This document shows positions 7,573 to 34,243 of a stretch of DNA of 64,000 nt, in pieces. A program made the position numbers and the translations under genes. The notes under the pieces were generated by a model that was not told where the DNA came from, made no database searches, and worked only from the letters and a program-made list of their open reading frames with translations. Positions within the stretch are counted from its first letter, which is position 1. Every line of letters starts with the position of its first letter. Source of the stretch: Eledone cirrhosa (Eukaryota); the NCBI GenBank assembly GCA_964016885.1, contig OZ024741.1, positions 27,714,001 through 27,778,000 on the forward strand. The letters are read 5' to 3'.

Positions 7573-7575
<3 letters not shown>
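6861..7575 (-). mobile_element. CR1-clade LINE 3' fragment, downstream half
   Basis: LYIAMVRPHLEFASPVWNPY..LEIVQRRATK..Y.ERL..L, TRGH, (ATT)n tail; one frameshift near 7170. Confidence 0.9.
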
Positions 7576-7603
<28 letters not shown>

Positions 7604-11413: not shown

Positions 11414-11694
11414 TAGCTAGCTGGAAGGTTATGAATGATTACCAGCGAGTAACAAAAAGCAAAACTGCAAGATTTGTTCTGTTCAATACGACAAAAACAC
11501 CGTATTTAAACCTTAATAAATAACAAAAAATACAGATTTCGGATTTTGCGGGATTGGATGTTTGTACGAAATTGTGGTGTGTGGAGGAGATAGGAAAAAC
11601 GTGAACGTTACGATTACATGGTTACACCGTAGTAGGGGTAGTTGAAGCAGCAATTGTTTGGCGAAAGTGAATAAACATGAACGGGAATTTATCT

Positions 11695-11725
<31 letters not shown>

Positions 11726-12332
11726 AGCTAAGAGAGAGAGAGAGAGAGTGGGAAGGGGGAGAGAGAGAGAGAGAGAGTGGCTGACCGCAACCCCTCGTGA
11801 AGAAAATGGTGGGTGAAGGGTGTATGAGCGGGATTTTTGACTTTCGAGGTAGCATGATATATATATTTAAAGTAAATTATAAGAAGTAGAATGGAAAGGA
11901 TTTTGTTGTTTTTTGTTTTTTTGTTTGAGAATACGATAGAATTAGGGAATTGGAGGATACGATAGAATTAAGAATGGGAAGGATTTTGTTTTTTTTGTTT
12001 GGGAATACGATGGAATTAAGGAATTTAAGGAATTGGAGAATACGATAGAATTAGCTAGCTGGAAGGTTATGAATGTTTACCAGCGAGTAACAAAAAGCAA
12101 AACTGCAAGATTTGTTCTGTTCAATACGACAAAAACACCGTATTTAAACCTTAATAAATAACAAAAAATACAGATTTCGGATTTTGCGGGATTGGATGTT
12201 TGTACGAAATTGTGGTGTGTGGAGGAGATAGGAAAAACGTGAACGTTACGATTACATGGTTACACCGTAGTAGGGGTAGTTGAAGCAGCAATTGTTTGGC
12301 GAAAGTGAATAAACATGAACGGGATTTTATCT

Positions 12333-12363
<31 letters not shown>

Positions 12364-12969
12364 AGCTAAGAGAGAGAGAGAGAGAGTGGGAAGGGGGAGA
12401 GAGAGAGAGAGAGAGTGGCTGACCGCAACCCCTCGTGAAGAAAATGGTGGGTGAAGGGTGTATGAGCGGGATTTTTGACTTTCGAGGTAGCATGATATAT
12501 ATATTTAAAGTAAATTATAAGAAGTAGAATGGAAAGGATTTTGTTGTTTTTTGTTTTTTTGTTTGAGAATACGATAGAATTAGGGAATTGGAGGATACGA
12601 TAGAATTAAGAATGGGAAGGATTTTGTTTTTTTGTTTGGGAATACGATGGAATTAAGGAATTTAAGGAATTGGAGAATACGATAGAATTAGCTAGCTGGA
12701 AGGTTATGAATGATTACCAGCGAGTAACAAAAAGCAAAACTGCAAGATTTGTTCTGTTCAATACGACAAAAACACCGTATTTAAACCTTAATAAATAACA
12801 AAAAATACAGATTTCGGATTTTGCGGGATTGGATGTTTGTACGAAATTGTGGTGTGTGGAGGAGATAGGAAAAACGTGAACGTTACGATTACATGGTTAC
12901 ACCGTAGTAGGGGTAGTTGAAGCAGCAATTGTTTGGCGAAAGTGAATAAACATGAACGGGAATTTATCT

Positions 12970-13000
<31 letters not shown>

Positions 13001-13607
13001 AGCTAAGAGAGAGAGAGAGAGAGTGGGAAGGGGGAGAGAGAGAGAGAGAGAGTGGCTGACCGCAACCCCTCGTGAAGAAAATGGTGGGTGAAGGGTGTAT
13101 GAGCGGGATTTTTGACTTTCGAGGTAGCATGATATATATATTTAAAGTAAATTATAAGAAGTAGAATGGAAAGGATTTTGTTGTTTTTTGTTTTTTTGTT
13201 TGAGAATACGATAGAATTAGGGAATTGGAGGATACGATAGAATTAAGAATGGGAAGGATTTTGTTTTTTTTGTTTGGGAATACGATGGAATTAAGGAATT
13301 TAAGGAATTGGAGAATACGATAGAATTAGCTAGCTGGAAGGTTATGAATGTTTACCAGCGAGTAACAAAAAGCAAAACTGCAAGATTTGTTCTGTTCAAT
13401 ACGACAAAAACACCGTATTTAAACCTTAATAAATAACAAAAAATACAGATTTCGGATTTTGCGGGATTGGATGTTTGTACGAAATTGTGGTGTGTGGAGG
13501 AGATAGGAAAAACGTGAACGTTACGATTACATGGTTACACCGTAGTAGGGGTAGTTGAAGCAGCAATTGTTTGGCGAAAGTGAATAAACATGAACGGGAT
13601 TTTATCT

Positions 13608-13638
<31 letters not shown>

Positions 13639-14244
13639 AGCTAAGAGAGAGAGAGAGAGAGTGGGAAGGGGGAGAGAGAGAGAGAGAGAGTGGCTGACCG
13701 CAACCCCTCGTGAAGAAAATGGTGGGTGAAGGGTGTATGAGCGGGATTTTTGACTTTCGAGGTAGCATGATATATATATTTAAAGTAAATTATAAGAAGT
13801 AGAATGGAAAGGATTTTGTTGTTTTTTGTTTTTTTGTTTGAGAATACGATAGAATTAGGGAATTGGAGGATACGATAGAATTAAGAATGGGAAGGATTTT
13901 GTTTTTTTGTTTGGGAATACGATGGAATTAAGGAATTTAAGGAATTGGAGAATACGATAGAATTAGCTAGCTGGAAGGTTATGAATGTTTACCAGCGAGT
14001 AACAAAAAGCAAAACTGCAAGATTTGTTCTGTTCAATACGACAAAAACACCGTATTTAAACCTTAATAAATAACAAAAAATACAGATTTCGGATTTTGCG
14101 GGATTGGATGTTTGTACGAAATTGTGGTGTGTGGAGGAGATAGGAAAAACGTGAACGTTACGATTACATGGTTACACCGTAGTAGGGGTAGTTGAAGCAG
14201 CAATTGTTTGGCGAAAGTGAATAAACATGAACGGGAATTTATCT

Positions 14245-14275
<31 letters not shown>

Positions 14276-14882
14276 AGCTAAGAGAGAGAGAGAGAGAGTG
14301 GGAAGGGGGAGAGAGAGAGAGAGAGAGTGGCTGACCGCAACCCCTCGTGAAGAAAATGGTGGGTGAAGGGTGTATGAGCGGGATTTTTGACTTTCGAGGT
14401 AGCATGATATATATATTTAAAGTAAATTATAAGAAGTAGAATGGAAAGGATTTTGTTGTTTTTTGTTTTTTTGTTTGAGAATACGATAGAATTAGGGAAT
14501 TGGAGGATACGATAGAATTAAGAATGGGAAGGATTTTGTTTTTTTTGTTTGGGAATACGATGGAATTAAGGAATTTAAGGAATTGGAGAATACGATAGAA
14601 TTAGCTAGCTGGAAGGTTATGAATGTTTACCAGCGAGTAACAAAAAGCAAAACTGCAAGATTTGTTCTGTTCAATACGACAAAAACACCGTATTTAAACC
14701 TTAATAAATAACAAAAAATACAGATTTCGGATTTTGCGGGATTGGATGTTTGTACGAAATTGTGGTGTGTGGAGGAGATAGGAAAAACGTGAACGTTACG
14801 ATTACATGGTTACACCGTAGTAGGGGTAGTTGAAGCAGCAATTGTTTGGCGAAAGTGAATAAACATGAACGGGAATTTATCT

Positions 14883-14913
<31 letters not shown>

Positions 14914-15520
14914 AGCTAAGAGAGAGAGAGAGAGAGTGGGAAGGGGGAGAGAGAGAGAGAGAGAGTGGCTGACCGCAACCCCTCGTGAAGAAAATGGTGG
15001 GTGAAGGGTGTATGAGCGGGATTTTTGACTTTCGAGGTAGCATGATATATATATTTAAAGTAAATTATAAGAAGTAGAATGGAAAGGATTTTGTTGTTTT
15101 TTGTTTTTTTGTTTGAGAATACGATAGAATTAGGGAATTGGAGGATACGATAGAATTAAGAATGGGAAGGATTTTGTTTTTTTTGTTTGGGAATACGATG
15201 GAATTAAGGAATTTAAGGAATTGGAGAATACGATAGAATTAGCTAGCTGGAAGGTTATGAATGTTTACCAGCGAGTAACAAAAAGCAAAACTGCAAGATT
15301 TGTTCTGTTCAATACGACAAAAACACCGTATTTAAACCTTAATAAATAACAAAAAATACAGATTTCGGATTTTGCGGGATTGGATGTTTGTACGAAATTG
15401 TGGTGTGTGGAGGAGATAGGAAAAACGTGAACGTTACGATTACATGGTTACACCGTAGTAGGGGTAGTTGAAGCAGCAATTGTTTGGCGAAAGTGAATAA
15501 ACATGAACGGGAATTTATCT

Positions 15521-15551
<31 letters not shown>

Positions 15552-16158
15552 AGCTAAGAGAGAGAGAGAGAGAGTGGGAAGGGGGAGAGAGAGAGAGAGA
15601 GAGTGGCTGACCGCAACCCCTCGTGAAGAAAATGGTGGGTGAAGGGTGTATGAGCGGGATTTTTGACTTTCGAGGTAGCATGATATATATATTTAAAGTA
15701 AATTATAAGAAGTAGAATGGAAAGGATTTTGTTGTTTTTTGTTTTTTTGTTTGAGAATACGATAGAATTAGGGAATTGGAGGATACGATAGAATTAAGAA
15801 TGGGAAGGATTTTGTTTTTTTTGTTTGGGAATACGATGGAATTAAGGAATTTAAGGAATTGGAGAATACGATAGAATTAGCTAGCTGGAAGGTTATGAAT
15901 GTTTACCAGCGAGTAACAAAAAGCAAAACTGCAAGATTTGTTCTGTTCAATACGACAAAAACACCGTATTTAAACCTTAATAAATAACAAAAAATACAGA
16001 TTTCGGATTTTGCGGGATTGGATGTTTGTACGAAATTGTGGTGTGTGGAGGAGATAGGAAAAACGTGAACGTTACGATTACATGGTTACACCGTAGTAGG
16101 GGTAGTTGAAGCAGCAATTGTTTGGCGAAAGTGAATAAACATGAACGGGAATTTATCT

Positions 16159-16189
<31 letters not shown>

Positions 16190-16795
16190 AGCTAAGAGAG
16201 AGAGAGAGAGAGTGGGAAGGGGGAGAGAGAGAGAGAGAGAGTGGCTGACCGCAACCCCTCGTGAAGAAAATGGTGGGTGAAGGGTGTATGAGCGGGATTT
16301 TTGACTTTCGAGGTAGCATGATATATATATTTAAAGTAAATTATAAGAAGTAGAATGGAAAGGATTTTGTTGTTTTTTGTTTTTTTGTTTGAGAATACGA
16401 TAGAATTAGGGAATTGGAGGATACGATAGAATTAAGAATGGGAAGGATTTTGTTTTTTTGTTTGGGAATACGATGGAATTAAGGAATTTAAGGAATTGGA
16501 GAATACGATAGAATTAGCTAGCTGGAAGGTTATGAATGTTTACCAGCGAGTAACAAAAAGCAAAACTGCAAGATTTGTTCTGTTCAATACGACAAAAACA
16601 CCGTATTTAAACCTTAATAAATAACAAAAAATACAGATTTCGGATTTTGCGGGATTGGATGTTTGTACGAAATTGTGGTGTGTGGAGGAGATAGGAAAAA
16701 CGTGAACGTTACGATTACATGGTTACACCGTAGTAGGGGTAGTTGAAGCAGCAATTGTTTGGCGAAAGTGAATAAACATGAACGGGAATTTATCT

Positions 16796-16826
<31 letters not shown>

Positions 16827-17438
16827 AGCTAAGAGAGAGAGAGAGAGAGTGGGAAGGGGGAGAGAGAGAGAGAGAGAGAGAGAGTGGCTGACCGCAACCC
16901 CTCGTGAAGAAAATGGTGGGTGAAGGGTGTATGAGCGGGATTTTTGACTTTCGAGGTAGCATGATATATATATTTAAAGTAAATTATAAGAAGTAGAATG
17001 GAAAGGATTTTGTTGTTTTTTGTTTTTTTGTTTGAGAATACGATAGAATTAGGGAATTGGAGGATACGATAGAATTAAGAATGGGAAGGATTTTGTTTTT
17101 TTGTTTGGGAATACGATGGAATTAAGGAATTTAAGGAATTGGAGAATACGATAGAATTAGCTAGCTGGAAGGTTATGAATGTTTACCAGCGAGTAACAAA
17201 AAGCAAAACTGCAAGATTTGTTCTGTTCAATACGACAAAAACACCGTATTTAAACCTTAATAAATAACAAAAAATACAGATTTCGGATTTTGCGGGATTG
17301 GATGTTTGTACGAAATTGTGGTGTGTGGAGGAGATAGGAAAAACGTGAACGTTACGATTACATGGTTACACCGTAGTAGGGGTAGTTGAAGCAGCAATTG
17401 TTTGGCGAAAGTGAATAAACATGAACGGGAATTTATCT

Positions 17439-17469
<31 letters not shown>

Positions 17470-18072
17470 AGCTAAGAGAGAGAGAGAGTGGGAAGGGGGA
17501 GAGAGAGAGAGAGAGAGTGGCTGACCGCAACCCCTCGTGAAGAAAATGGTGGGTGAAGGGTGTATGAGCGGGATTTTTGACTTTCGAGGTAGCATGATAT
17601 ATATATTTAAAGTAAATTATAAGAAGTAGAATGGAAAGGATTTTGTTGTTTTTTGTTTTTTTGTTTGAGAATACGATAGAATTAGGGAATTGGAGGATAC
17701 GATAGAATTAAGAATGGGAAGGATTTTGTTTTTTTTGTTTGGGAATACGATGGAATTAAGGAATTTAATGAATTGGAGAATACGATAGAATTAGCTAGCT
17801 GGAAGGTTATGAATGTTTACCAGCGAGTAACAAAAAGCAAAACTGCAAGATTTGTTCTGTTCAATACGACAAAAACACCGTATTTAAACCTTAATAAATA
17901 ACAAAAAATACAGATTTCGGATTTTGCGGGATTGGATGTTTGTACGAAATTGTGGTGTGTGGAGGAGATAGGAAAAACGTGAACGTTACGATTACATGGT
18001 TACACCGTAGTAGGGGTAGTTGAAGCAGCAATTGTTTGGCGAAAGTGAATAAACATGAACGGGAATTTATCT

Positions 18073-18103
<31 letters not shown>

Positions 18104-18710
18104 AGCTAAGAGAGAGAGAGAGAGAGTGGGAAGGGGGAGAGAGAGAGAGAGAGAGTGGCTGACCGCAACCCCTCGTGAAGAAAATGGTGGGTGAAGGGTG
18201 TATGAGCGGGATTTTTGACTTTCGAGGTAGCATGATATATATATTTAAAGTAAATTATAAGAAGTAGAATGGAAAGGATTTTGTTGTTTTTTGTTTTTTT
18301 GTTTGAGAATACGATAGAATTAGGGAATTGGAGGATACGATAGAATTAAGAATGGGAAGGATTTTGTTTTTTTGTTTGGGAATACGATGGAATTAAGGAA
18401 TTTAAGGAATTGGAGAATACGATAGAATCAGCTAGCTGGAAGGTTATGAATGTTTACCAGCGAGTAACAAAAAGCAAAACTGCAAGATTTGTTCTGTTCA
18501 ATACGACAAAAACACCGTATTTAAACCTTAATAAATAACAAAAAATACAGATTTCGGATTTTGCGGGATTGGATGTTTGTACGAAATTGTGGTGTGTGGA
18601 GGAGATAGGAAAAACGTGAACGTTACGATTACATGGTTACACCGTAGTAGGGGTAGTTGAAGCAGCAATTGTTTGGCGAAAGTGAAATAAACATGAACGG
18701 GAATTTATCT

Positions 18711-18741
<31 letters not shown>

Positions 18742-19347
18742 AGCTAAGAGAGAGAGAGAGAGAGTGGGAAGGGGGAGAGAGAGAGAGAGAGAGTGGCTGA
18801 CCGCAACCCCTCGTGAAGAAAATGGTGGGTGAAGGGTGTATGAGCGGGATTTTTGACTTTCGAGGTAGCATGATATATATATTTAAAGTAAATTATAAGA
18901 AGTAGAATGGAAAGGATTTTGTTGTTTTTTGTTTTTTTGTTTGAGAATACGATAGAATTAGGGAATTGGAGGATACGATAGAATTAAGAATGGGAAGGAT
19001 TTTGTTTTTTTGTTTGGGAATACGATGGAATTAAGGAATTTAAGGAATTGGAGAATACGATAGAATTAGCTAGCTGGAAGGTTATGAATGTTTACCAGCG
19101 AGTAACAAAAAGCAAAACTGCAAGATTTGTTCTGTTCAATACGACAAAAACACCGTATTTAAACCTTAATAAATAACAAAAAATACAGATTTCGGATTTT
19201 GCGGGATTGGATGTTTGTACGAAATTGTGGTGTGTGGAGGAGATAGGAAAAACGTGAACGTTACGATTACATGGTTACACCGTAGTAGGGGTAGTTGAAG
19301 CAGCAATTGTTTGGCGAAAGTGAATAAACATGAACGGGAATTTATCT

Positions 19348-19378
<31 letters not shown>

Positions 19379-19984
19379 AGCTAAGAGAGAGAGAGAGAGA
19401 GTGGGAAGGGGGAGAGAGAGAGAGAGAGAGTGGCTGACCGCAACCCCTCGTGAAGAAAATGGTGGGTGAAGGGTGTATGAGCGGGATTTTTGACTTTCGA
19501 GGTAGCATGATATATATATTTAAAGTAAATTATAAGAAGTAGAATGGAAAGGATTTTGTTGTTTTTTGTTTTTTTGTTTGAGAATACGATAGAATTAGGG
19601 AATTGGAGGATACGATAGAATTAAGAATGGGAAGGATTTTGTTTTTTTGTTTGGGAATACGATGGAATTAAGGAATTTAAGGAATTGGAGAATACGATAG
19701 AATTAGCTAGCTGGAAGGTTATGAATGTTTACCAGCGAGTAACAAAAAGCAAAACTGCAAGATTTGTTCTGTTCAATACGACAAAAACACCGTATTTAAA
19801 CCTTAATAAATAACAAAAAATACAGATTTCGGATTTTGCGGGATTGGATGTTTGTACGAAATTGTGGTGTGTGGAGGAGATAGGAAAAACGTGAACGTTA
19901 CGATTACATGGTTACACCGTAGTAGGGGTAGTTGAAGCAGCAATTGTTTGGCGAAAGTGAATAAACATGAACGGGAATTTATCT

Positions 19985-20015
<31 letters not shown>

Positions 20016-20621
20016 AGCTAAGAGAGAGAGAGAGAGAGTGGGAAGGGGGAGAGAGAGAGAGAGAGAGTGGCTGACCGCAACCCCTCGTGAAGAAAATGGT
20101 GGGTGAAGGGTGTATGAGCGGGATTTTTGACTTTCGAGGTAGCATGATATATATATTTAAAGTAAATTATAAGAAGTAGAATGGAAAGGATTTTGTTGTT
20201 TTTTGTTTTTTTGTTTGAGAATACGATAGAATTAGGGAATTGGAGGATACGATAGAATTAAGAATGGGAAGGATTTTGTTTTTTTGTTTGGGAATACGAT
20301 GGAATTAAGGAATTTAAGGAATTGGAGAATACGATAGAATTAGCTAGCTGGAAGGTTATGAATGTTTACCAGCGAGTAACAAAAAGCAAAACTGCAAGAT
20401 TTGTTCTGTTCAATACGACAAAAACACCGTATTTAAACCTTAATAAATAACAAAAAATACAGATTTCGGATTTTGCGGGATTGGATGTTTGTACGAAATT
20501 GTGGTGTGTGGAGGAGATAGGAAAAACGTGAACGTTACGATTACATGGTTACACCGTAGTAGGGGTAGTTGAAGCAGCAATTGTTTGGCGAAAGTGAATA
20601 AACATGAACGGGAATTTATCT

Positions 20622-20654
<33 letters not shown>

Positions 20655-21261
20655 AGCTAAGAGAGAGAGAGAGAGAGTGGGAAGGGGAGAGAGAGAGAGA
20701 GAGAGAGTGGCTGACCGCAACCCCTCGTGAAGAAAATGGTGGGTGAAGGGTGTATGAGCGGGATTTTTGACTTTCGAGGTAGCATGATATATATATTTAA
20801 AGTAAATTATAAGAAGTAGAATGGAAAGGATTTTGTTGTTTTTTGTTTTTTTGTTTGAGAATACGATAGAATTAGGGAATTGGAGGATACGATAGAATTA
20901 AGAATGGGAAGGATTTTGTTTTTTTGTTTGGGAATACGATGGAATTAAGGAATTTAAGGAATTGGAGAATACGATAGAATTGGCTAGCTGGAAGGTTATG
21001 AATGTTTACCAGCGAGTAACAAAAAGCAAAACTGCAAGATTTGTTCTGTTCAATACGACAAAAACACCGTATTTAAACCTTAATAAATAACAAAAAATAT
21101 AGATTTCGGATTTTGCGGGATTGGATGTTTGTACGAAATTGTGGTGTGTGGAGGAGATAGGAAAAACGTGAACGTTACGATTACATGGTTACACCGTAGT
21201 AGGGGTAGTTGAAGCAGCAATTGTTTGGCGAAAGTGAATAAACATGAACGGGAATTTATCT

Positions 21262-21292
<31 letters not shown>

Positions 21293-21898
21293 AGCTAAGA
21301 GAGAGAGAGAGAGAGTGGGAAGGGGGAGAGAGAGAGAGAGAGAGTGGCTGACCGCAACCCCTCGTGAAGAAAATGGTGGGTGAAGGGTGTATGAGCGGGA
21401 TTTTTGACTTTCGAGGTAGCATGATATATATATTTAAAGTAAATTATAAGAAGTAGAATGGAAAGGATTTTGTTGTTTTTTGTTTTTTTGTTTGAGAATA
21501 CGATAGAATTAGGGAATTGGAGGATACGATAGAATTAAGAATGGGAAGGATTTTGTTTTTTTGTTTGGGAATACGATGGAATTAAGGAATTTAAGGAATT
21601 GGAGAATACGATAGAATTAGCTAGCTGGAAGGTTATGAATGTTTACCAGCGAGTAACAAAAAGCAAAACTGCAAGATTTGTTCTGTTCAATACGACAAAA
21701 ACACCGTATTTAAACCTTAATAAATAACAAAAAATACAGATTTCGGATTTTGCGGGATTGGATGTTTGTACGAAATTGTGGTGTGTGGAGGAGATAGGAA
21801 AAACGTGAACGTTACGATTACATGGTTACACCGTAGTAGGGGTAGTTGAAGCAGCAATTGTTTGGCGAAAGTGAATAAACATGAACGGGATTTTATCT

Positions 21899-21929
<31 letters not shown>

Positions 21930-22535
21930 AGCTAAGAGAGAGAGAGAGAGAGTGGGAAGGGGAAGAGAGAGAGAGAGAGAGTGGCTGACCGCAACCCCTC
22001 GTGAAGAAAATGGTGGGTGAAGGGTGTATGAGCGGGATTTTTGACTTTCGAGGTAGCATGATATATATATTTAAAGTAAATTATAAGAAGTAGAATGGAA
22101 AGGATTTTGTTGTTTTTTGTTTTTTTGTTTGAGAATACGATAGAATTAGGGAATTGGAGGATACGATAGAATTAAGAATGGGAAGGATTTTGTTTTTTTG
22201 TTTGGGAATACGATGGAATTAAGGAATTTAAGGAATTGGAGAATACGATAGAATTAGCTAGCTGGAAGGTTATGAATGTTTACCAGCGAGTAACAAAAAG
22301 CAAAACTGCAAGATTTGTTCTGTTCAATACGACAAAAACACCGTATTTAAACCTTAATAAATAACAAAAAATACAGATTTCGGATTTTGCGGGATTGGAT
22401 GTTTGTACGAAATTGTGGTGTGTGGAGGAGATAGGAAAAACGTGAACGTTACGATTACATGGTTACACCGTAGTAGGGGTAGTTGAAGCAGCAATTGTTT
22501 GGCGAAAGTGAATAAACATGAACGGGAATTTATCT

Positions 22536-22566
<31 letters not shown>

Positions 22567-23171
22567 AGCTAAGAGAGAGAGAGAGAGTGGGAAGGGGGAG
22601 AGAGAGAGAGAGAGAGTGGCTGACCGCAACCCCTCGTGAAGAAAATGGTGGGTGAAGGGTGTATGAGCGGGATTTTTGACTTTCGAGGTAGCATGATATA
22701 TATATTTAAAGTAAATTATAAGAAGTAGAAAGGAAAGGATTTTGTTGTTTTTTGTTTTTTTGTTTGAGAATACGATAGAATTAGGGAATTGGAGGATACG
22801 ATAGAATTAAGAATGGGAAGGATTTTGTTTTTTTTGTTTGGGAATACGATGGAATTAAGGAATTTAAGGAATTGGAGAATACGATAGAATTAGCTAGCTG
22901 GAAGGTTATGAATGTTTACCAGCGAGTAACAAAAAGCAAAACTGCAAGATTTGTTCTGTTCAATACGACAAAAACACCGTATTTAAACCTTAATAAATAA
23001 CAAAAAATACAGATTTCGGATTTTGCGGGATTGGATGTTTGTACGAAATTGTGGTGTGTGGAGGAGATAGGAAAAACGTGAACGTTACGATTACATGGTT
23101 ACACCGTAGTAGGGGTAGTTGAAGCAGCAATTGTTTGGCGAAAGTGAATAAACATGAACGGGAATTTATCT

Positions 23172-23202
<31 letters not shown>

Positions 23203-23808
23203 AGCTAAGAGAGAGAGAGAGAGAGTGGGAAGGGGGAGAGAGAGAGAGAGAGAGTGGCTGACCGCAACCCCTCGTGAAGAAAATGGTGGGTGAAGGGTGT
23301 ATGAGCGGGATTTTTGACTTTCGAGGTAGCATGATATATATATTTAAAGTAAATTATAAGAAGTAGAATGGAAAGGATTTTGTTGTTTTTTGTTTTTTTG
23401 TTTGAGAATACGATAGAATTAGGGAATTGGAGGATACGATAGAATTAAGAATGGGAAGGATTTTGTTTTTTTGTTTGGGAATACGATGGAATTAAGGAAT
23501 TTAAGGAATTGGAGAATACGATAGAATTAGCTAGCTGGAAGGTTATGAATGTTTACCAGCGAGTAACAAAAAGCAAAACTGCAAGATTTGTTCTGTTCAA
23601 TACGACAAAAACACCGTATTTAAACCTTAATAAATAACAAAAAATACAGATTTCGGATTTTGCGGGATTGGATGTTTGTACGAAATTGTGGTGTGTGGAG
23701 GAGATAGGAAAAACGTGAACGTTACGATTACATGGTTACACCGTAGTAGGGGTAGTTGAAGCAGCAATTGTTTGGCGAAAGTGAATAAACATGAACGGGA
23801 ATTTATCT

Positions 23809-23839
<31 letters not shown>

Positions 23840-24445
23840 AGCTAAGAGAGAGAGAGAGAGAGTGGGAAGGGGGAGAGAGAGAGAGAGAGAGTGGCTGACC
23901 GCAACCCCTCGTGAAGAAAATGGTGGGTGAAGGGTGTATGAGCGGGATTTTTGACTTTCGAGGTAGCATGATATATATATTTAAAGTAAATTATAAGAAG
24001 TAGAATGGAAAGGATTTTGTTGTTTTTTGTTTTTTTGTTTGAGAATACGATAGAATTAGGGAATTGGAGGATACGATAGAATTAAGAATGGGAAGGATTT
24101 TGTTTTTTTGTTTGGGAATACGATGGAATTAAGGAATTTAAGGAATTGGAGAATACGATAGAATTAGCTAGCTGGAAGGTTATGAATGTTTACCAGCGAG
24201 TAACAAAAAGCAAAACTGCAAGATTTGTTCTGTTCAATACGACAAAAACACCGTATTTAAACCTTAATAAATAACAAAAAATACAGATTTCGGATTTTGC
24301 GGGATTGGATGTTTGTACGAAATTGTGGTGTGTGGAGGAGATAGGAAAAACGTGAACGTTACGATTACATGGTTACACCGTAGTAGGGGTAGTTGAAGCA
24401 GCAATTGTTTGGCGAAAGTGAATAAACATGAACGGGAATTTATCT

Positions 24446-24476
<31 letters not shown>

Positions 24477-25082
24477 AGCTAAGAGAGAGAGAGAGAGAGT
24501 GGGAAGGGGGAGAGAGAGAGAGAGAGAGTGGCTGACCGCAACCCCTCGTGAAGAAAATGGTGGGTGAAGGGTGTATGAGCGGGATTTTTGACTTTCGAGG
24601 TAGCATGATATATATATTTAAAGTAAATTATAAGAAGTAGAATGGAAAGGATTTTGTTGTTTTTTGTTTTTTTGTTTGAGAATACGCTAGAATTAGGGAA
24701 TTGGAGGATACGATAGAATTAAGAATGGGAAGGATTTTGTTTTTTTGTTTGGGAATACGATGGAATTAAGGAATTTAAGGAATTGGAGAATACGATAGAA
24801 TTAGCTAGCTGGAAGGTTATGAATGTTTACCAGCGAGTAACAAAAAGCAAAACTGCAAGATTTGTTCTGTTCAATACGACAAAAACACCGTATTTAAACC
24901 TTAATAAATAACAAAAAATACAGATTTCGGATTTTGCGGGATTGGATGTTTGTACGAAATTGTGGTGTGTGGAGGAGATAGGAAAAACGTGAACGTTACG
25001 ATTACATGGTTACACCGTAGTAGGGGTAGTTGAAGCAGCAATTGTTTGGCGAAAGTGAATAAACATGAACGGGAATTTATCT

Positions 25083-25113
<31 letters not shown>

Positions 25114-25719
25114 AGCTAAGAGAGAGAGAGAGAGAGTGGGAAGGGGGAGAGAGAGAGAGAGAGAGTGGCTGACCGCAACCCCTCGTGAAGAAAATGGTGG
25201 GTGAAGGGTGTATGAGCGGGATTTTTGACTTTCGAGGTAGCATGATATATATATTTAAAGTAAATTATAAGAAGTAGAATGGAAAGGATTTTGTTGTTTT
25301 TTGTTTTTTTGTTTGAGAATACGATAGAATTAGGGAATTGGAGGATACGATAGAATTAAGAATGGGAAGGATTTTGTTTTTTTGTTTGGGAATACGATGG
25401 AATTAAGGAATTTAAGGAATTGGAGAATACGATAGAATTAGCTAGCTGGAAGGTTATGAATGTTTACCAGCGAGTAACAAAAAGCAAAACTGCAAGATTT
25501 GTTCTGTTCAATACGACAAAAACACCGTATTTAAACCTTAATAAATAACAAAAAATACAGATTTCGGATTTTGCGGGATTGGATGTTTGTACGAAATTGT
25601 GGTGTGTGGAGGAGATAGGAAAAACGTGAACGTTACGATTACATGGTTACACCGTAGTAGGGGTAGTTGAAGCAGCAATTGTTTGGCGAAAGTGAATAAA
25701 CATGAACGGGAATTTATCT

Positions 25720-25750
<31 letters not shown>

Positions 25751-26356
25751 AGCTAAGAGAGAGAGAGAGAGAGTGGGAAGGGGGAGAGAGAGAGAGAGAG
25801 AGTGGCTGACCGCAACCCCTCGTGAAGAAAATGGTGGGTGAAGGGTGTATGAGCGGGATTTTTGACTTTCGAGGTAGCATGATATATATATTTAAAGTAA
25901 ATTATAAGAAGTAGAATGGAAAGGATTTTGTTGTTTTTTGTTTTTTTGTTTGAGAATACGATAGAATTAGGGAATTGGAGGATACGATAGAATTAAGAAT
26001 GGGAAGGATTTTGTTTTTTTGTTTGGGAATACGATGGAATTAAGGAATTTAAGGAATTGGAGAATACGATAGAATTAGCTAGCTGGAAGGTTATGAATGT
26101 TTACCAGCGAGTAACAAAAAGCAAAACTGCAAGATTTGTTCTGTTCAATACGACAAAAACACCGTATTTAAACCTTAATAAATAACAAAAAATACAGATT
26201 TCGGATTTTGCGGGATTGGATGTTTGTACGAAATTGTGGTGTGTGGAGGAGATAGGAAAAACGTGAACGTTACGATTACATGGTTACACCGTAGTAGGGG
26301 TAGTTGAAGCAGCAATTGTTTGGCGAAAGTGAATAAACATGAACGGGAATTTATCT

Positions 26357-26387
<31 letters not shown>

Positions 26388-26993
26388 AGCTAAGAGAGAG
26401 AGAGAGAGAGTGGGAAGGGGGAGAGAGAGAGAGAGAGAGTGGCTGACCGCAACCCCTCGTGAAGAAAATGGTGGGTGAAGGGTGTATGAGCGGGATTTTT
26501 GACTTTCGAGGTAGCATGATATATATATTTAAAGTAAATTATAAGAAGTAGAATGGAAAGGATTTTGTTGTTTTTTGTTTTTTTGTTTGAGAATACGATA
26601 GAATTAGGGAATTGGAGGATACGATAGAATTAAGAATGGGAAGGATTTTGTTTTTTTGTTTGGGAATACGATGGAATTAAGGAATTTAAGGAATTGGAGA
26701 ATACGATAGAATTAGCTAGCTGGAAGGTTATGAATGTTTACCAGCGAGTAACAAAAAGCAAAACTGCAAGATTTGTTCTGTTCAATACGACAAAAACACC
26801 GTATTTAAACCTTAATAAATAACAAAAAATACAGATTTCGGATTTTGCGGGATTGGATGTTTGTACGAAATTGTGGTGTGTGGAGGAGATAGGAAAAACG
26901 TGAACGTTACGATTACATGGTTACACCGTAGTAGGGGTAGTTGAAGCAGCAATTGTTTGGCGAAAGTGAATAAACATGAACGGGAATTTATCT

Positions 26994-27024
<31 letters not shown>

Positions 27025-27630
27025 AGCTAAGAGAGAGAGAGAGAGAGTGGGAAGGGGGAGAGAGAGAGAGAGAGAGTGGCTGACCGCAACCCCTCGTGAA
27101 GAAAATGGTGGGTGAAGGGTGTATGAGCGGGATTTTTGACTTTCGAGGTAGCATGATATATATATTTAAAGTAAATTATAAGAAGTAGAATGGAAAGGAT
27201 TTTGTTGTTTTTTGTTTTTTTGTTTGAGAATACGATAGAATTAGGGAATTGGAGGATACGATAGAATTAAGAATGGGAAGGATTTTGTTTTTTTGTTTGG
27301 GAATACGATGGAATTAAGGAATTTAAGGAATTGGAGAATACGATAGAATTAGCTAGCTGGAAGGTTATGAATGTTTACCAGCGAGTAACAAAAAGCAAAA
27401 CTGCAAGATTTGTTCTGTTCAATACGACAAAAACACCGTATTTAAACCTTAATAAATAACAAAAAATACAGATTTCGGATTTTGCGGGATTGGATGTTTG
27501 TACGAAATTGTGGTGTGTGGAGGAGATAGGAAAAACGTGAACGTTACGATTACATGGTTACACCGTAGTAGGGGTAGTTGAAGCAGCAATTGTTTGGCGA
27601 ATGTGAATAAACATGAACGGGAATTTATCT

Positions 27631-27661
<31 letters not shown>

Positions 27662-28267
27662 AGCTAAGAGAGAGAGAGAGAGAGTGGGAAGGGGGAGAGA
27701 GAGAGAGAGAGAGTGGCTGACCGCAACCCCTCGTGAAGAAAATGGTGGGTGAAGGGTGTATGAGCGGGATTTTTGACTTTCGAGGTAGCATGATATATAT
27801 ATTTAAAGTAAATTATAAGAAGTAGAATGGAAAGGATTTTGTTGTTTTTTGTTTTTTTGTTTGAGAATACGATAGAATTAGGGAATTGGAGGATACGATA
27901 GAATTAAGAATGGGAAGGATTTTGTTTTTTTGTTTGGGAATACGATGGAATTAAGGAATTTAAGGAATTGGAGAATACGATAGAATTGGCTAGCTGGAAG
28001 GTTATGAATGTTTACCAGCGAGTAACAAAAAGCAAAACTGCAAGATTTGTTCTGTTCAATACGACAAAAACACCGTATTTAAACCTTAATAAATAACAAA
28101 AAATACAGATTTCGGATTTTGCGGGATTGGATGTTTGTACGAAATTGTGGTGTGTGGAGGAGATAGGAAAAACGTGAACGTTACGATTACATGGTTACAC
28201 CGTAGTAGGGGTAGTTGAAGCAGCAATTGTTTGGCGAAAGTGAATAAACATGAACGGGAATTTATCT

Positions 28268-28298
<31 letters not shown>

Positions 28299-28560
28299 AG
28301 CTAAGAGAGAGAGAGAGAGAGTGGGAAGGGGGAGAGAGAGAGAGAGAGAGTGGCTGACCGCAACCCCTCGTGAAGAAAATGGTGGGTGAAGGGTGTATGA
28401 GCGGGATTTTTGACTTTCGAGGTAGCATGATATATATATTTAAAGTAAATTATAAGAAGTAGAATGGAAAGGATTTTGTTGTTTTTTGTTTTTTTGTTTG
28501 AGAATACGATAGAATTAGGGAATTGGAGGATACGATAGAATTAGGAATGGGAAGGATTTT
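11414..28560 (-). repeat. Tandem array of ~637-bp units, ~26.9 copies, nearly identical
   Basis: gctagctggaaggttatgaatg recurs 27 times (about 11415, 12053, 12691 ... 27352, 27989); the last unit is truncated at 28560. Confidence 0.98.
11662..11700 (-). promoter_or_regulatory. Putative TATA + Inr core promoter in the first monomer, repeated in every unit
   Basis: Minus strand TATAAGA (T at 11698) lies 30 nt upstream of the A in TTCACTT (11668); (CT)n and (CA)n tracts upstream. Confidence 0.55.
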
Positions 28561-28780
28561 CGTCCAACGCAAACCGCTGCTGACCGTAATGCCCAGGTCA
28601 CATTCACAGGAAGACTTCTTGATATTAGTGTTGTGGAGGGAGTATGTGGACGCTGGGTTTTTACTCCCAAAATGCATGGTGGTACACTTGTCCACAGCCA
28701 GCTTCAGTTGCCAGTCTGTGATCCATTGTTGCATTATGTCCAGGTCAGACTGCAGGCAAGATCAATAGTGTTCAGGATCT
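28559..28780 (-). mobile_element. CR1-clade LINE fragment, upstream half of the element at 6861-7575
   Basis: WQLKLAVDKCTTMHFG...DLGITVSSGLRWTK continues in frame as HVSKIVKKA at 7572. Confidence 0.88.
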
Positions 28781-29185
28781 GTCCTTTTTATCTCAATAAT
28801 AAACATACATTTAATCTCACTGTATTTTAAGGTATTGGGCGACAAGCAATGTATACAAGCATTTCAGATTGGTATCTTTTCTTCAGCACTCAACTAAGAT
28901 CAGGTAAAGCAGTAAAGACATAGATTTTACACCCACCAGTCATGATACCACTTCCAACACGGGCTGCGAATGTCAATCCTGTTTATGAAAATAATTGTTT
29001 CTACTTTTGGCACAAGGCCAGCAATTACCCAGTGCATTACTGGTACTTTATAATGAACATAAGAGGTGACAGTACGTACCCTTGGTGGCGTCTGACTCCC
29101 ACATCGAATGCATGTATACGTTGTAAATAAAAAAACAGATACATACACATACCAGAAGTATATTTCAAAGGAAGTGGTAACTTAC

Positions 29186-29268: not shown

Positions 29269-29306
29269 CTGAAAAATAGTAGTTTTAAGGAAATTCATTT
29301 TAGATT

Positions 29307-29338
<32 letters not shown>

Positions 29339-29347
29339 TGTATATAC

Positions 29348-29396
<49 letters not shown>

Positions 29397-29919
29397 CATA
29401 TATATGTATATATATATATACATCATCATCATCAGGTTTAGCGTCCGTGTTCCACGCTTGCATGGGTTTGGACGGGGGTTTTCCCACTTGAGGCAAGAGT
29501 GGTTGTCTTGCTCGCATAGGACTGTCTGGCGGGTTTTCTACAGTTGGATGCCCTTCCTAACACCAACCACATTTACAGTGTGGGGCTGGGAGGTTTTTAC
29601 CATGTTGCCTACACGGCCACATTACAGCGTGGACTGTCTGGCGGGTTTTCTACAGCTGGATGCCCTTCCTAACACCAACCACATTTACAGTGTGGGGCTG
29701 GGATGTTTTTACCGTGTTGCCTACACGGCCACATTTACAGCGTGGACTGTGTGTTTTTTTGTCGTGACACCTACACGATCTCATTTGTTTCGGCCTGGAT
29801 GTTGTGGGACCAACATAACTGTACATTGAAAGGGGCGGTGTGGATGGGGTGGAGGTGGTGGGACGGGGGGGTGTTTTGATAGAGATGCCTACTGACTGTA
29901 GTAGGTTTTTACTTTGTAT

Positions 29920-32900
29920 TTAGGTAAGGCGGGTCTTCTCTATTACTGAGTACCGCCAAAGGTCTCGGTCCAGTGACATTGCCTTGGAGAGGTGTAAGCG
30001 TGTGAAGTCGGAATTTATCAGCTCGTCCCATGTTTTTCTGGGTCTGCCTACTCCGTGGCTACCGTCTATCTTTATTGCCCTGCACTTTGTTATACAGCTG
30101 TCGTCTTTCATGCGCATCACGTGACCGTACCAACGTAGCCTTCTCTCGAGTAAACAACATCTGATCCCTCTTATTTCTAATTTTTTCCTTAGTTCGTTTA
30201 TGCTTTGCCGTTCACGTATATTACTATTGCACATCCAGCGGAGCATGCAAGCTTCGTTCCTCTCTAGTATATCCTCTGCACACAATGCCCAGGTTTCACT
30301 GCCATGCAGCATTGCTGTTCGTATGCAGGCATCGTATAACCTGCCTTTCATTTTTAGGGAGAACCCTCTAGCGGCTAATAGTGGTATAAGCTCTCTGAAC
30401 TTTTTCCATCCAGTTCTGACTCTAGCTACTGTACTTTCAGAGCACCCTCCCCCACTGCTGATTTTGTCACCCAGGTAACGGAAGCTGTCCACTATTTCTA
30501 TAGAACCCTCTGCGCAGTTGAAGGAGCTAGTATTTTGTGGGCACTTGCTGCTACTTATTGCACCAGAGCACCGGCCACATGTAAAATCTATGTTCTTAGT
30601 TAGCTTACCTGTGATCCCACTACATCTTTTATGCACCCATACTTTGCATTTGGGACATAAAATGGAGTTTCTACCTACGCCTTTCCTACACACTGAGCAT
30701 GGCCATTTCCCAGATGGGACTGCCGCCATATTTTCTTTCCTACAAACTAGAACTTTTGTCTTAGCCAGGTTAATTTTAAGGCCTTTTGATTCTAGGCCGT
30801 GCTTCCATGTTTGGAATTTCTTCTCTAGTTCGGTCATTGATTCAGCTATGAGCGTTAGATCATCTGCGTATAGGAGTTCCCATGGGCAGCCGGTCTTGAA
30901 CTCCTCTGTTATAGCCTGAAGGGCAATAATAAATAGTAGGGGGCTAAGAACAGAGCCCTGATGGACACCAACTTTTACGCTAAACTCTTCACTATATTCG
31001 TTGTTAATTCTAACCTTACTGACTGTTTCTTTATACATGGCTTGTATAGCTCTCACAAGCCATTCGTCAACACCTAGTTTTCTAAGAGACCACCAGATAA
31101 TGGAACGGGGGACTCTGTCGAAGGCTTTCTCCAAGTCGACGAAAGCTAAGTATAGGGGTTTACTTTTAGCTAGGTACTTCTCCTGTAGTTGTCGTACAAT
31201 GAAAAGAGCGTCTGTGGTACTTTTGCCTGACACAAATCCGAACTGCATTTCATCTAGATCAATTCTCTCTCTGATTAGTTGCGCTATTACTTTTTCCGTG
31301 ACCTTCATGACCTGGTCGATTAATTTAATGCCTCTATAGTTACTCCTATCTAGGGCATCTCCTTTTCCCTTATAGCAGTTAACGATGATGCTGCTACGCC
31401 AGTCCTTCGGAACAACCCCATTCTGTACGACTTGGTTAACTATCCGGGTGACCATGGTGTGTCCCACCGAACCAGATGCCTTCAGCATCTCAGCAACTAT
31501 TTCCGAAGGACCAGCCGCCTTACCCGTCTTCATATCTTTGATTGCCTTGCTTATTGTACTACCCTGGACTAACACTGCTGGTCCCTCTATTGGGTCGATG
31601 TGGGGGAGACTGTCTTTCTCCCATTTGTTCTCCTCATTTAGAAGCCTTTCGTAGTGACACTTCCAAGCTACCTTCTTATCAGCGTCGGTGATGGCAAGTA
31701 TGCCATCATCGTTAAGCACACACTTCTCCCCGACAATATCACGGTTTTCCTTGACACATTGCCTGGCAATCCTGAACACCTCACGTTTTTAGTCCTCACG
31801 TTGTAGAACATGCTTGAACTTTCTTTCCTCTGCTTCCCTTCTTGCGAAGTACACTTGTCTCCTAGCTTCCCTCCTGGCTACCTGATAGTCTTCTCTACTT
31901 CCCCCATCCCGCCATGCGTTCCAAGCCTGCTTTTTGGCCTCATTTGACTCCTCCACCTTACTGTTCCACCACCATGTTACTCTCCTCCTACCTACAGGCC
32001 TGCTCCAGCCACAGACTTCGTCTGCCGCCGTCAGCAGGTTTGCTCTCAGGAATTCCCACTGTTCCTCTATATTATACGACTCTAATTGCTCTTCCTTACT
32101 GTCGAAAGCGTCAAGTAATATGCTTTGAAATTTATTTCTGGCTATGGGGTCCTTTAGCTTCCATATTTTTCTCCTGAGGATAGTCCTCTTCCGCTGTCTA
32201 GTACGTCTCGTCCTGACTATGAGGTCGCTAATTATCAGTCTATGTTGGGAGGTGAATTCTTCATGGGGGAGGGATTTAGTGTTAACAACAGACACTCTGT
32301 CACGTCTTCTGGTAAGGATATAATCTACCTGGCTTGTGTGTTCCCCCGATCTATAGGTGATCAAGTGATTGTCTCGTTTTTTGAAGTTAGTGTTACAGAT
32401 AGTTAAGTTATTTGCGTCGCAGAATTCCAGGATTCTGGAGCCTTCCTCATTTCTAGTACCGAACCCATAGCCTCCATGGATTCCGTCATAGCCGTCACAA
32501 TGCTGTCCAACGTGACCATTTAGGTCGCCTGCAATAACTATATAGTCACTGTCGGTTATTTGGGAGGTAGCGAGCATCAGTGTCTCGTAGAATCTGTCTT
32601 TTATAGCACCGGGCAGTCCGGATTGTGGTGCGTACGCAGATATTACTGTCACCGTAGTTTTATTGAGGACAAGTCTTATTTTAATTATTCTGTCGTTCAC
32701 TCTATTTACGTCTATTATCTTATCTGCCCACTTTTCTGCTACCATGATTCCTACCCCACCCAACCCATTGTCATTTCCCACCCAGAAAAGCTTATAGCAT
32801 CGTTCTTTACCCACGATGAATCTAGCCGACCCTCCCCTCCACCTGGTCTCTTGAATACAACAAACATCGACCTCCTTACGTTCAAGCATTTCTACAACCT

Positions 32901-33085
32901 CGTTAGAGCGACCCTTTAAGGTGCCTACATTCATGGTACCAACTCTGAAGTTTTGGATTGCGTTTGGAGGGTGGGAGCGGTGGGGCGCGGGGGGGGGGGG
33001 GGTTATGTTAGCCATCCTGGGCCGAAATAAGGCGGAGTGCTTGCATTCTCGTCCACGAGGTGAATTTGTCTTTATCTTTGGCATT
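29920..33085 (-). pseudogene. RTE polyprotein of copy C, split by in-frame TAA at 31789-31791
   Basis: ...HVLQRED*KREVFRIA...; also a 2-codon deletion (EDILERNE versus EDIRRLERNE). Confidence 0.92.
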
Positions 33086-33251
33086 GTCGCTGAGCGTCCA
33101 CATTTTTCTCTCTTCAACTCTCCAGAATTCCGTAGTCCATCCATCATATCGAAAAGCAACCAGTTAGGCGATAGTATGGGCCTCTGACTTATGATTGGTC
33201 CACGTAATAATGGTGGTGCGTGGGGGCGGGTGGGAGGGATGATGTGTTGTT

Positions 33252-34243
33252 AGCGAGAATGTAAGGTTTAAGATAAGATCGCCGTATTTTGGGCATAATT
33301 TAACAATAAACGAAAATACAAGATTTGTTTTGTTTAAGAAAATACGATAGAGAAAATGCGGTGATAGGGAAAATATGATTTTTAGAGAAAAAATATGATA
33401 TAGAATGGTGAAAATATGATATAGTGTGAAATTAGGACATAGAACAGTGATTGAATGAATGGATTCGAATGGAGAGAAGAATCGAGAAAAATATTTGGAC
33501 GTTACTTTATACCGCAAGAACAGCCATCCCAGAAATAGCGAGTTGGCGATTGTGATTAATTTTGGTAGGGATTTATCTTATATGTATAGAGAGGGATGGG
33601 GGGGGGAGGACAGGAACCAGCATGATGTATGGGTAGGGGGTAGAAGATGGGATGGAGCAGAGGTTAAGAGTTTAAATAGGTACTAGAAGTTTTGCGTAGA
33701 ACTTAGCAAGTTTAACAAAATATATTTAAAGGAATATATAATAGTGATTTGTTTTTGTTATGAAAATACGACAGAATATGAAAATATGACAGAATTAAGC
33801 GAGAATGTAAGGTTTAAGATAAGATCGCCGTATTTTGGGCATAATTTAACAATAAACGAAAATACAAAATTTGTTTTGTTTAAGAAAATACGATAGAGAA
33901 AATGCGGTGATAGGGAAAATATGATTTTTAGAGAAAAAATATGATATAGAATGGTGAAAATATGATATAGTGTGAAATTAGGACGTAGAACAGTGATTGA
34001 ATGAATGGATTCGAATGGAGAGAAGAATCAAGAAAAATATTTGGACGTTACTTTATACCGCAAGAACAGCCATCCCAGAAATAGCGAGTTGGCGATTGTG
34101 ATTAATTTTGGTAGGGATTTATCTTATATGTATAGAGAGGGATGGGGGGGGGGGGGGGGCAGGAACCAGCATGATGTATGGGTAGGGGGTAGAAGATGGG
34201 ATGGAGCAGAGGTTAAGAGTTTAAATAGGTACTAGAAGTTTTG
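33252..34243 (-). repeat. 546-bp tandem monomer (33252-33797, partial 33798-34243)
   Basis: agcgagaatgtaaggtttaagataagatcgcc at 33252 and 33798; TATA/Inr at 33582/33553 and 34128/34099. Confidence 0.95.

Follow-up and report, generated by a model that had tools for sequence, protein, structure and literature searches.

The window, a 64,000-nt stretch of the Eledone cirrhosa genome, harbors two examined copies of one element on the minus strand, copy B (~21 kb) and copy C, each with tandem 5′ units, an ORF region and a 3′ UTR ending in a (TGA)n tail (Table 1). The copy B array contained 27 TATA blocks, at 11698 and in 26 more units up to 28271 with a spacing of 634–643 bp, while copy C contained TATA boxes at 33582 and 34128, 546 bp apart. 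Both TATA-initiator blocks quoted in the initial annotation (41 nt in copy B, 40 nt in copy C) were found on the minus strand, and its arithmetic for the predicted initiators at 11668, 33553 and 34099 was correct. The two copies themselves start mid-unit, copy B at unit position 340 and copy C 114 nt upstream of a TATA, neither of them at an initiator. The copy B ORF is split by a frameshift near 8975 that is private to this copy.

Table 1 Parts of copies B and C and of the interrupted repeat, in window coordinates.
Feature	Position	Strand	Remarks
Copy B 5′ array	11414..28560	-	outer partial unit from unit position 340, 26 complete ~637-bp units, last partial unit (positions 1-288)
Copy B innermost TATA-spacer-initiator block	11658..11698	-	predicted +1 at 11668 (putative start site); recurs every ~637 bp to 28271
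Copy B unique tether, array to ORF	11201..11413	-	kept across lineages
Copy B single ORF region	7942..11200	-	APE endonuclease, reverse transcriptase, PHD-like finger
Copy B 3′ UTR and (TGA)n tail	7574..7941	-	
Copy B 5′-junction target duplication, 2-3 nt	28559..28561	-	same letters again at 7573-7575
Older repeat split by copy B, 5′ half	28562..28840	-	outer boundary approximate
Older repeat split by copy B, 3′ half	7020..7573	-	outer boundary approximate
Copy C 5′ units	33252..34243	-	outer partial unit, one complete 546-bp unit, final partial unit
Copy C inner TATA-spacer-initiator block	33543..33582	-	likely start 33553-33557 (predicted)
Copy C outer TATA-spacer-initiator block	34089..34128	-	likely start 34099-34103 (predicted)
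Copy C ORF region	29920..33147	-	interrupted by in-frame stop at 31789-31791
Copy C 3′ UTR and (TGA)n tail	29421..29919	-	112-bp duplication within; tail runs into (TA)n tract

Of 3644 aligned body sites, 221 distinguish copy B from copy C. Matches to Pfam PF03372/PF14529 and PF00078 placed an APE endonuclease and a reverse transcriptase in one ORF with no separate ORF1, the single-ORF arrangement being assessed against the RTE clade definition in the consulted part of PMC2887409. An ORF of at least 1000 aa was retained in 22 of 52 long loci (single ORFs of 1006–1099 aa), and a (TGA)n tail, not poly(A), closed both window copies and all 16 of the 16 loci displayed. Membership of the L1 clade was rejected, as one ORF and a (TGA)n tail were found where ORF1, ORF2 and poly(A) are expected. 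Among the 120 homologous matches listed (48–67% identity, domain order mostly the same), none carried an element name.

Some RTE elements carry a 5′ self-cleaving ribozyme with an HDV-like or hammerhead fold. Such a ribozyme was considered here and was unsupported by general folding and Rfam: a search of positions 10900–13100 against Rfam was empty up to an E value of 5, and the conserved block 11030–11140 folded no better than shuffles (z 0.65).

Tandem units and their TATA block

The initial annotation held that the units of copies B and C are alignable only in short blocks. This did not survive alignment, as the units, diverged as they are, proved homologous along their whole length, with 372 of 665 columns identical and an alignment score of −186 versus at most −257 among 30 shuffles. 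The units (35–39% GC) evolve at a far higher rate than the body and build up sub-repeats of their own, yet are homologous between lineages and follow the body tree; as read from these alignments, the units have evolved by descent, not by swapping. Each of the two main body-tree branches keeps tandem units, the tether is conserved, and the number of TATA units per element ranged from 0 to 3 among 87 C elements and from 0 to 27 among 98 B elements.

The pattern running from the TATA block to TCGCCAA had 745 exact matches in the 3.0-Gb genome, compared with 1 for the reversed control, an excess well above what chance would give. Across 11 lineage representatives, ATATAAGATAA was the sole invariant run of at least 5 nt within the unit, an apparent invariance that is favored because most representatives were found via the TATA pattern itself, the exceptions being lineages G and H, recruited from junction searches, and lineage F, recruited from a search anchored on CGCCAA. 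Older lineages were also sought with a negative pattern, which proved too unspecific (58 matches versus 29 in the control) and yielded only lineage F.

The TATA box consensus is TATAWAWR. TATAAGAT matches it imperfectly, with a perfect match located 2 nt further upstream in copy B and one mismatch there in copy C, so that a TATAWAWR-like box precedes a pyrimidine-purine start as far as sequence matching goes. The TATA-to-CA spacing, described in the initial annotation as conserved, was indeed 29–31 nt in most units, whereas over all lineages it ranged from 26 to 34 nt, with 26–28 nt in lineages E and F. The spacing of most units fits the TATA window of −32 to −29 reported for mouse promoters in the consulted part of PMC1779604. 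Downstream, TCGCCAA is variable, and one sub-lineage without it still builds arrays of at least 6 units.

5′ ends of genomic copies and the candidate start site

LINEs normally need internal promoters, given that upstream elements are lost on retrotransposition. To place the 5′ ends of copies, we took the first 100 of 243 C junction matches and the first 100 of 295 B junction matches without selection, which gave 83 readable 5′ ends in the C lineage and 91 in the B lineage; BLAST match lists, which hold best-scoring candidates only, were left out of the statistics. In the C lineage, 14 of the 83 ends fell at unit positions 20–45, where 1.85 were expected (p about 1e-8), the window having been picked after the results of the genome-wide negative-pattern search described below were known. 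The expectation was 1.63 when microhomology classes were taken into account and 2.49 at the higher rate of the upstream half (p 4e-7), and the neighboring windows held about as many ends as expected (1 versus 1.4 at positions 1–19 and 3 versus 2.5 at 51–76). The B-lineage signal was weak and not robust, with 8 of 91 ends at positions 20–45 versus 3.9 expected (p 0.04) and 5 versus 4.0 at positions 25–50 (p 0.38). Thus, the expectation that long copies start at the initiator was strongly upheld in the C lineage and weakly in the B lineage. An apparent second peak at positions 77–102 (10 versus 2.5) was discarded, as taking the sub-repeats within the units into account reduced it to 8 versus 5.2 (p 0.16).

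A genome-wide negative-pattern search gave 20 matches, all of them without the TATA, and 18 of the 20 begin no more than 10 nt before CGCC; its control windows held 4 events plus 1 at the edge in one case and 1 event in the other. The ends were spread over ~20 nt rather than fixed at one base, and the C preceding the predicted A was kept in 12 of 20 initiator-starting C-lineage copies; the main C-lineage start probably lies 1–4 nt before that A. Of the passes reaching each successive C-lineage initiator, 8/48, 4/12, 1/4 and 1/1 stopped there, such that ~4/5 of passes read through an initiator, while thinly sampled upstream windows gave 2/15 to 3/16 stops per pass. Because these starts occurred at the first to the fourth initiators, 6 of the 14 initiator-starting C copies carry whole TATA units downstream, as the initial annotation had anticipated for copies starting in an outer unit.

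Taking the C-lineage pile-up 20–45 nt after the TATA block together with the shared box, the units are likely promoters. The family is of RTE type and young, and tandem units of 0.5–1.3 kb in variable number make up the 5′ end of this LINE. We consider it probable that each unit acts as an RNA polymerase II promoter with its TATA box ~30 nt upstream of the start, so that RNA from an outer unit would carry the inner promoters along. The pile-up likely marks the RNA end, a location that does not in itself prove that the TATA box sets that end.

The leading alternative, which we regard as unlikely, is that the units are promoters of the usual internal LINE type, with signals at or downstream of the initiator, the TATA-like run being a captured (TA)n remnant or a minor aid and the tandem arrangement adding strength only, as in mouse L1. 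It expects the same pile-up of 5′ ends and would accommodate both the copies L160 and L164, which have a long intact ORF and no TATA unit, and the short motifs downstream of the initiator that are common to most lineages. The adjacency of the TATA block to a CA/TA microsatellite in the B lineage also agrees with it, as does the use of internal promoters by most non-LTR elements examined, according to the consulted part of PMC1636488. However, the sole invariant run of the unit sits upstream of the start, at TATA distance, and a sub-lineage that has lost TCGCCAA, the strongest downstream motif, has spread all the same.

The pile-up could instead arise because reverse transcriptase stops there, the RNA is cleaved or ends are joined to (TA)n targets by microhomology, with transcription from host promoters or by read-through, an explanation that we judge distinctly improbable. 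In its favor, TA-rich 5′ flanks were counted for 63 of the 83 C copies and for 60 of the 91 B copies; the B lineage also has ends clustering in the CA/TA run that precedes the TATA and gives a weak initiator signal. By contrast, the 14 ends observed far exceed the microhomology-adjusted expectation, the more TA-like positions 1–19 hold just 1 end, the search of Rfam gave no match in the interval described above, and the pile-up sits where the TATA box predicts a start. Among 5′ junctions, one possible case of an untemplated G was noted (L154), (TA)n targets being unreadable for such a G.

It is very improbable that the units lack a function and, like a satellite, hitch-hike on the element and expand by recombination, with the shared block a chance survival in AT-rich DNA. 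This reading would account for the fast change and internal sub-repeats of the units and for the probable growth of very long arrays after insertion, but would leave unexplained the invariant 11-nt block with its kept spacing, the end pile-up behind it and the persistence of tandem units in each of the two main body-tree branches.

Insertion and proposed growth and regeneration of the array

Copy B is one insertion into an older repeat. In 14 of 14 other copies of the repeat that it interrupts, the two flanks directly adjoin each other, which, together with the target duplication of 2–3 nt, assigns the array to the element; the duplication overlaps microhomology at both ends, and duplications are unreadable in (TA)n targets. 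Unit number changes in place, as one insertion was seen twice with identical flanks, carrying two versus one initiator segments. At the truncation rate measured here, 1.2e-3 per nt and assumed constant, the chance that a 17.1-kb tract is copied whole is about 1e-9, and very long arrays probably grow after insertion. With a difference of 0.18% among the copy B units and of 0.16% between its body and the nearest relatives, dating array against body is uninformative. Comparison of four contig sets with the copy B 5′ junction gave no bridging piece, and array length is not addressed by this comparison.

In the proposed tandem TATA-promoter mechanism, each unit would fire as a promoter, and RNA starting in an outer unit would take whole inner-unit promoters into the new copy; reverse transcription reaching the RNA end would then produce the pile-up of 5′ ends. 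Each round would cost the upstream part of one unit, a loss that has to be made good, most likely through DNA-level recombination. Once a copy has inserted, its repeats may recombine unequally or slip against each other, which would restore units and may sometimes overshoot, as in the 27-unit array of copy B. The self-regenerating tandem promoter of the initial annotation holds in part, given that some initiator-starting copies do retain inner units, whereas that model omits the regain of lost units and its promoter role for the units is a predicted one.

More tentatively, and with somewhat less than even confidence, we speculate that the family has abandoned the internal promoter for a strictly upstream TATA promoter, with retrotransposition using up one unit per round and recombination minting new ones, at times into 17-kb satellites; the RTE clade would then have arrived at the rodent L1 design independently. 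Single-unit copies may even be rescued because the preferred (TA)n tracts supply a TATA box at the right distance, which was present in the target of 9 of 20 initiator-starting copies.

Comparison with known systems and implications

By analogy, the principle is that of the rodent L1 monomer-plus-tether design and is already known; the maintenance of a promoter by tandem 5′ monomers through truncation-prone retrotransposition, a less novel idea than the initial annotation suggests, is described for mouse L1 in the consulted part of PMC6454616, where the re-extension of monomer arrays is called unclear. According to the consulted parts of PMC6454616, PMC9022269 and PMC5381506, rodent L1 elements (L1Md A/Gf/Tf and rat L1) likewise have variable tandem 5′ monomers, about 200 bp in mouse and about 650 bp in rat, with a tether to the ORF. 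Their genomic 5′ ends cluster at one monomer position, taken as the start site, and their promoter is said to be maintained by monomer duplication, with unequal crossing-over as one proposed route. The Eledone family differs in its single-ORF RTE-type body with a (TGA)n tail, in AT-rich units rather than the CpG islands of rodent L1, in arrays of up to 27 units on one element, and in the TATA-like box upstream of the putative start, whereas the consulted parts of the same three papers do not contain the word 'TATA' and place Tf/Gf ends near a YY1 site.

In the Drosophila HeT-A tandem promoter and Penelope partial tandems (PMC2377424 and PMC1636488, consulted in part), a tandem neighbor similarly supplies sequence upstream of the start and offsets promoter loss. 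However, that sequence is the neighboring element's 3′ UTR, unlike the dedicated 5′ unit repeated here within one element, and the Penelope promoter is described there as internal and TATA-less. The Nicotiana SolRTE resembles this family in 5′ UTR turnover far faster than that of the body, with putative TATA boxes mentioned, but swaps non-homologous 5′ UTRs, and 'tandem' and 'monomer' are absent from the consulted text (bioRxiv 10.1101/2022.11.04.512097). The Octopus vulgaris element RTE-2_OV (PMC9115989, consulted in part) is also a single-ORF RTE, with a transcript 5′ UTR of ~600 nt compared with 470–620 nt from initiator to candidate start codons here. It encodes 1109 aa with a C2H2 finger rather than about 1080 aa with a PHD-like finger, and tandem 5′ units are unreported in that part of the source; identity with it was rejected, as 2 of 2 primers tried had no match within 3 mismatches. 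The consulted part of the TRE5-A report (PMC3159450) describes a 200-bp promoter module and makes no mention of tandem copies. A search of titles and abstract openings, covering few subscription papers and run without Repbase, found no tandem 5′ monomers in an RTE element. The Eledone family thus stands apart through its RTE-type body, a putative TATA box that precedes the start and, as the alignments indicate, unit evolution by descent rather than swapping.

The finding addresses the old question of how a LINE promoter survives when RNA copying drops everything upstream of the start, and would provide a second, independent case beside mouse L1, in which a dispersed element is seen seeding kilobase satellites. 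With its sharply predicted start, an 11-nt box that can be mutated, several lineages that differ stepwise in age and young, nearly identical copies in the hundreds, the family allows direct tests of both the promoter model and unit regrowth. If the strict upstream-TATA reading is true, the family would be a clean system for testing how monomer arrays are regenerated.

Structure of the tandem 5′ arrays

In each of 14 other copies of the interrupted repeat, the sequences flanking copy B adjoin with an overlap of 2-3 nt. The 21 kb from array to tail therefore fill a single insertion site, and the array belongs to the element. Elsewhere in the genome, the same unit followed by the same tether, the unique piece between array and ORF, was found in arrays of 1-7 units. 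The interrupted repeat (1648 first-look candidates in the genome) had no Pfam match and resembles the 3′ portion of a CR1-type LINE.

Copy B contained 27 TATA blocks spaced by 634-643 bp and 26 complete units with a mutual difference of 0.18%, and in copy C two TATA blocks lay at a distance of 546 bp. The coding region of both copies specifies an APE endonuclease, a reverse transcriptase and a PHD-like finger, and an ORF of at least 1000 aa is kept in 22 of 52 long loci of the family. Copy B is very young, differing by 0.16% from its nearest relatives, and its frameshift is private (1 of 72 matches). Among 89 matches, one of them copy C again, the in-frame stop of copy C was confined to copy C and a third copy in the window; local duplication or conversion may account for this, or descent of both from a defective source. 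Many of the RTE-type fragments in the window lie inside (TA)n tracts. A separate 228-aa frame had no Pfam match but resembles a fragment of a Tc1/mariner-type transposase.

Coordinates of features in the window
Feature	Position	Strand	Remarks
Copy B array	11414-28560	minus	17.1 kb
Copy B tether	between array and ORF region	minus	0.2 kb
Copy B ORF region	11200-7942	minus	single
25-nt block near ORF start	11085-11110	minus	
Copy B (TGA)n tail	end at 7574	minus	
Repeat split by copy B	6921-7573 and 28562-28840	minus	
Copy C	34243-29421	minus	
In-frame stop in copy C ORF	31789-31791	minus	
Third copy	42708-46085	plus	5′-truncated; 98.9% identity to copy C
Further truncated or older RTE-type fragments	2325-3776, 36220-41602, 47521-47811, 53937-54212		71-92% to copy C
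228-aa frame	35036-35722	plus	
56-bp minisatellite (~40 copies; 37/93/149-bp higher-order variants) and 24-bp minisatellite (34 copies)	50525-52767 and 55292-56125		

The TATA block and the probable descent of the units

The initial annotation had described two monomers with conserved spacing between the TATA and the initiator, the predicted CA start. The blocks are present, and the pattern from TATA to TCGCCAA gave 745 exact matches in the 3.0-Gb genome (the first 100 listed) versus 1 for the control, but the TATA-to-CA distance ranged from 26 to 34 nt across lineages, mostly 29-31. About eight unit lineages (B to H and variants) were recognized by the TATA pattern and by junction-based searches, and ATATAAGATAA was the sole invariant run of at least 5 nt within the unit among 11 lineage representatives, most of them picked via the TATA pattern (G, H and F were found otherwise). 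Sub-lineage H (L290, L382, L385, L390, L407 and L412) has lost TCGCCAA, yet forms arrays of six or more units in which the TATA persists and the CA stays at 31.

Said to be alignable only in short blocks, the B and C units instead proved homologous end to end, with 372 of 665 columns identical and an alignment score above 30 of 30 shuffles; in their bodies, 6% of sites are different. A tree of 49 bodies placed the C-type units in a single clade and gave a ladder of E, D and B types as the other, with one G row and one unlabelled row sitting among these groups. That the units are homologous and follow the body tree suggests that they evolve rapidly by descent and were not acquired as unrelated 5′ ends.

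C-lineage units increase from 546 to 1295 bp via an internal ~200-bp sub-repeat (L041-L052, L086, L155, L161 and L187). At locus L364, a ~26-bp piece of the unit-tether junction forms a long array; both cases are nested tandem growth. Near the ORF start, all 11 lineage representatives share an invariant block of 25 nt that encodes NSPRGRE and resembles part of an HDV-like ribozyme loop; fold analysis of this block gave no stable fold.

Start positions of genomic copies

A search for initiator segments without the upstream C-run returned 20 C-lineage matches (one an inverted fragment, two a single duplicated insertion), all 20 lacking the TATA, 18 starting at most 10 nt before CGCC and 7 containing at least two units. 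In control windows of 16 nt, there were 4 events among 29 matches, with 1 more at the edge, and 1 event among 2 matches; the same search with the young B unit gave 6 matches, 4 of which were truncations. Since 12 of the 20 C copies retain the C before the predicted +1, the main start of this lineage probably lies 1-4 nt further upstream or is spread. The 5′ junctions of L168 and L157, one carrying its own first 14 nt again in inverted form and the other with a short template jump exactly at the initiator, look like events at the RNA template end.

An unselected census took 100 junction matches per lineage, the first ones listed out of 243 (C) and 295 (B). Merging same-element rows gave 87 C elements, and the 5′ end was readable in all but 4 of them, giving 83 ends; after two B rows were left out (one taken from the wrong side, one containing N), there were 98 elements, 7 unreadable, and 91 ends, two placed by eye. 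The window of unit positions 20-45 was picked after the targeted search, making the p values optimistic. It held 14 of 83 C ends versus 1.85 expected from exposure (p 1e-8), 1.63 once TA microhomology is allowed for, or 2.5 at the higher upstream-half rate (p 4e-7). Windows 15-45, 25-50 and 26-47 held 14-15 ends, and neighbouring windows 1 (positions 1-19) and 3 (51-76). A sliding scan placed the top stop rate at the initiator window (12/57 passes), with 2/15 to 3/16 passes in thinly sampled upstream windows, and stops per pass at initiators one to four were 8/48, 4/12, 1/4 and 1/1. For B, 8 of 91 ends fell at 20-45 versus 3.9 expected (p 0.04), a result unstable to window choice, and ends also clustered in a CA/TA run upstream of the TATA, which microhomology with targets would explain. 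The prediction that long copies start at the initiator thus found support in the C lineage but little in the B lineage, and both window copies stopped early. A C-lineage array of at least 38 TATA blocks with 694/846-bp units (L184, contig C1, ~365.68-365.71 Mb; array portion read) has its 5′ end at unit position 42, just past the initiator.

Proposed loss and regrowth of probable promoter units

Judged from sequence, a TATA-initiator promoter is probably present in each unit. RNA begun in unit k would include the complete units inside it, and the finished cDNA would start at the outer unit's initiator, so that inner promoters would be retained; copies starting at an outer-unit initiator with inner units present were seen. 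The early-stop rate of cDNA was ~1.2-1.4e-3 per nt, and most cDNAs stopped early; every round loses sequence, so units must be regained. At this rate, assumed constant, the chance of copying the 17.1-kb tract whole is ~1e-9, and the two occurrences of a single insertion carry two initiator segments in one case and one in the other; both facts point to change in place, with unit number likely altered by recombination. Positions 289-339 are present in the units of copy B yet absent from both partial end units, so this copy must have had at least two TATA blocks on arrival. Flanks on the 5′ side were TA-rich for 63 of 83 C and 60 of 91 B ends, with TATAWAWR 24-34 nt upstream in 9 of 20 initiator-starting copies, and a side route via such flanks is possible. 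We infer that the units act as promoters, that this activity depends on the TATA and that units regrow by recombination.

The initial observation is confirmed, and its interpretation as a self-regenerating tandem promoter is partly supported: the DNA-level evidence is good in one lineage, the C lineage, but regaining units needs a further step.

Passages on mouse and rat L1 describe tethered monomer arrays, clustering of the mouse 5′ ends at one monomer position matched by CAGE, and monomer duplication said to maintain the promoter, with unequal crossing-over as one proposed route (PMC6454616, PMC5381506, PMC9022269). HeT-A and Penelope are described as using a tandem neighbour (PMC2377424, PMC1636488), and tobacco RTEs as swapping non-homologous 5′ ends (bioRxiv 2022.11.04.512097). 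Term searches of two octopus papers (PMC9115989, PMC13282606) returned no mention of tandem 5′ units, and no tandem 5′ array in an RTE element was found in the literature accessible to the search. The element would thus work like the rodent L1 promoter, yet it is not an L1 and is RTE-type by anatomy.
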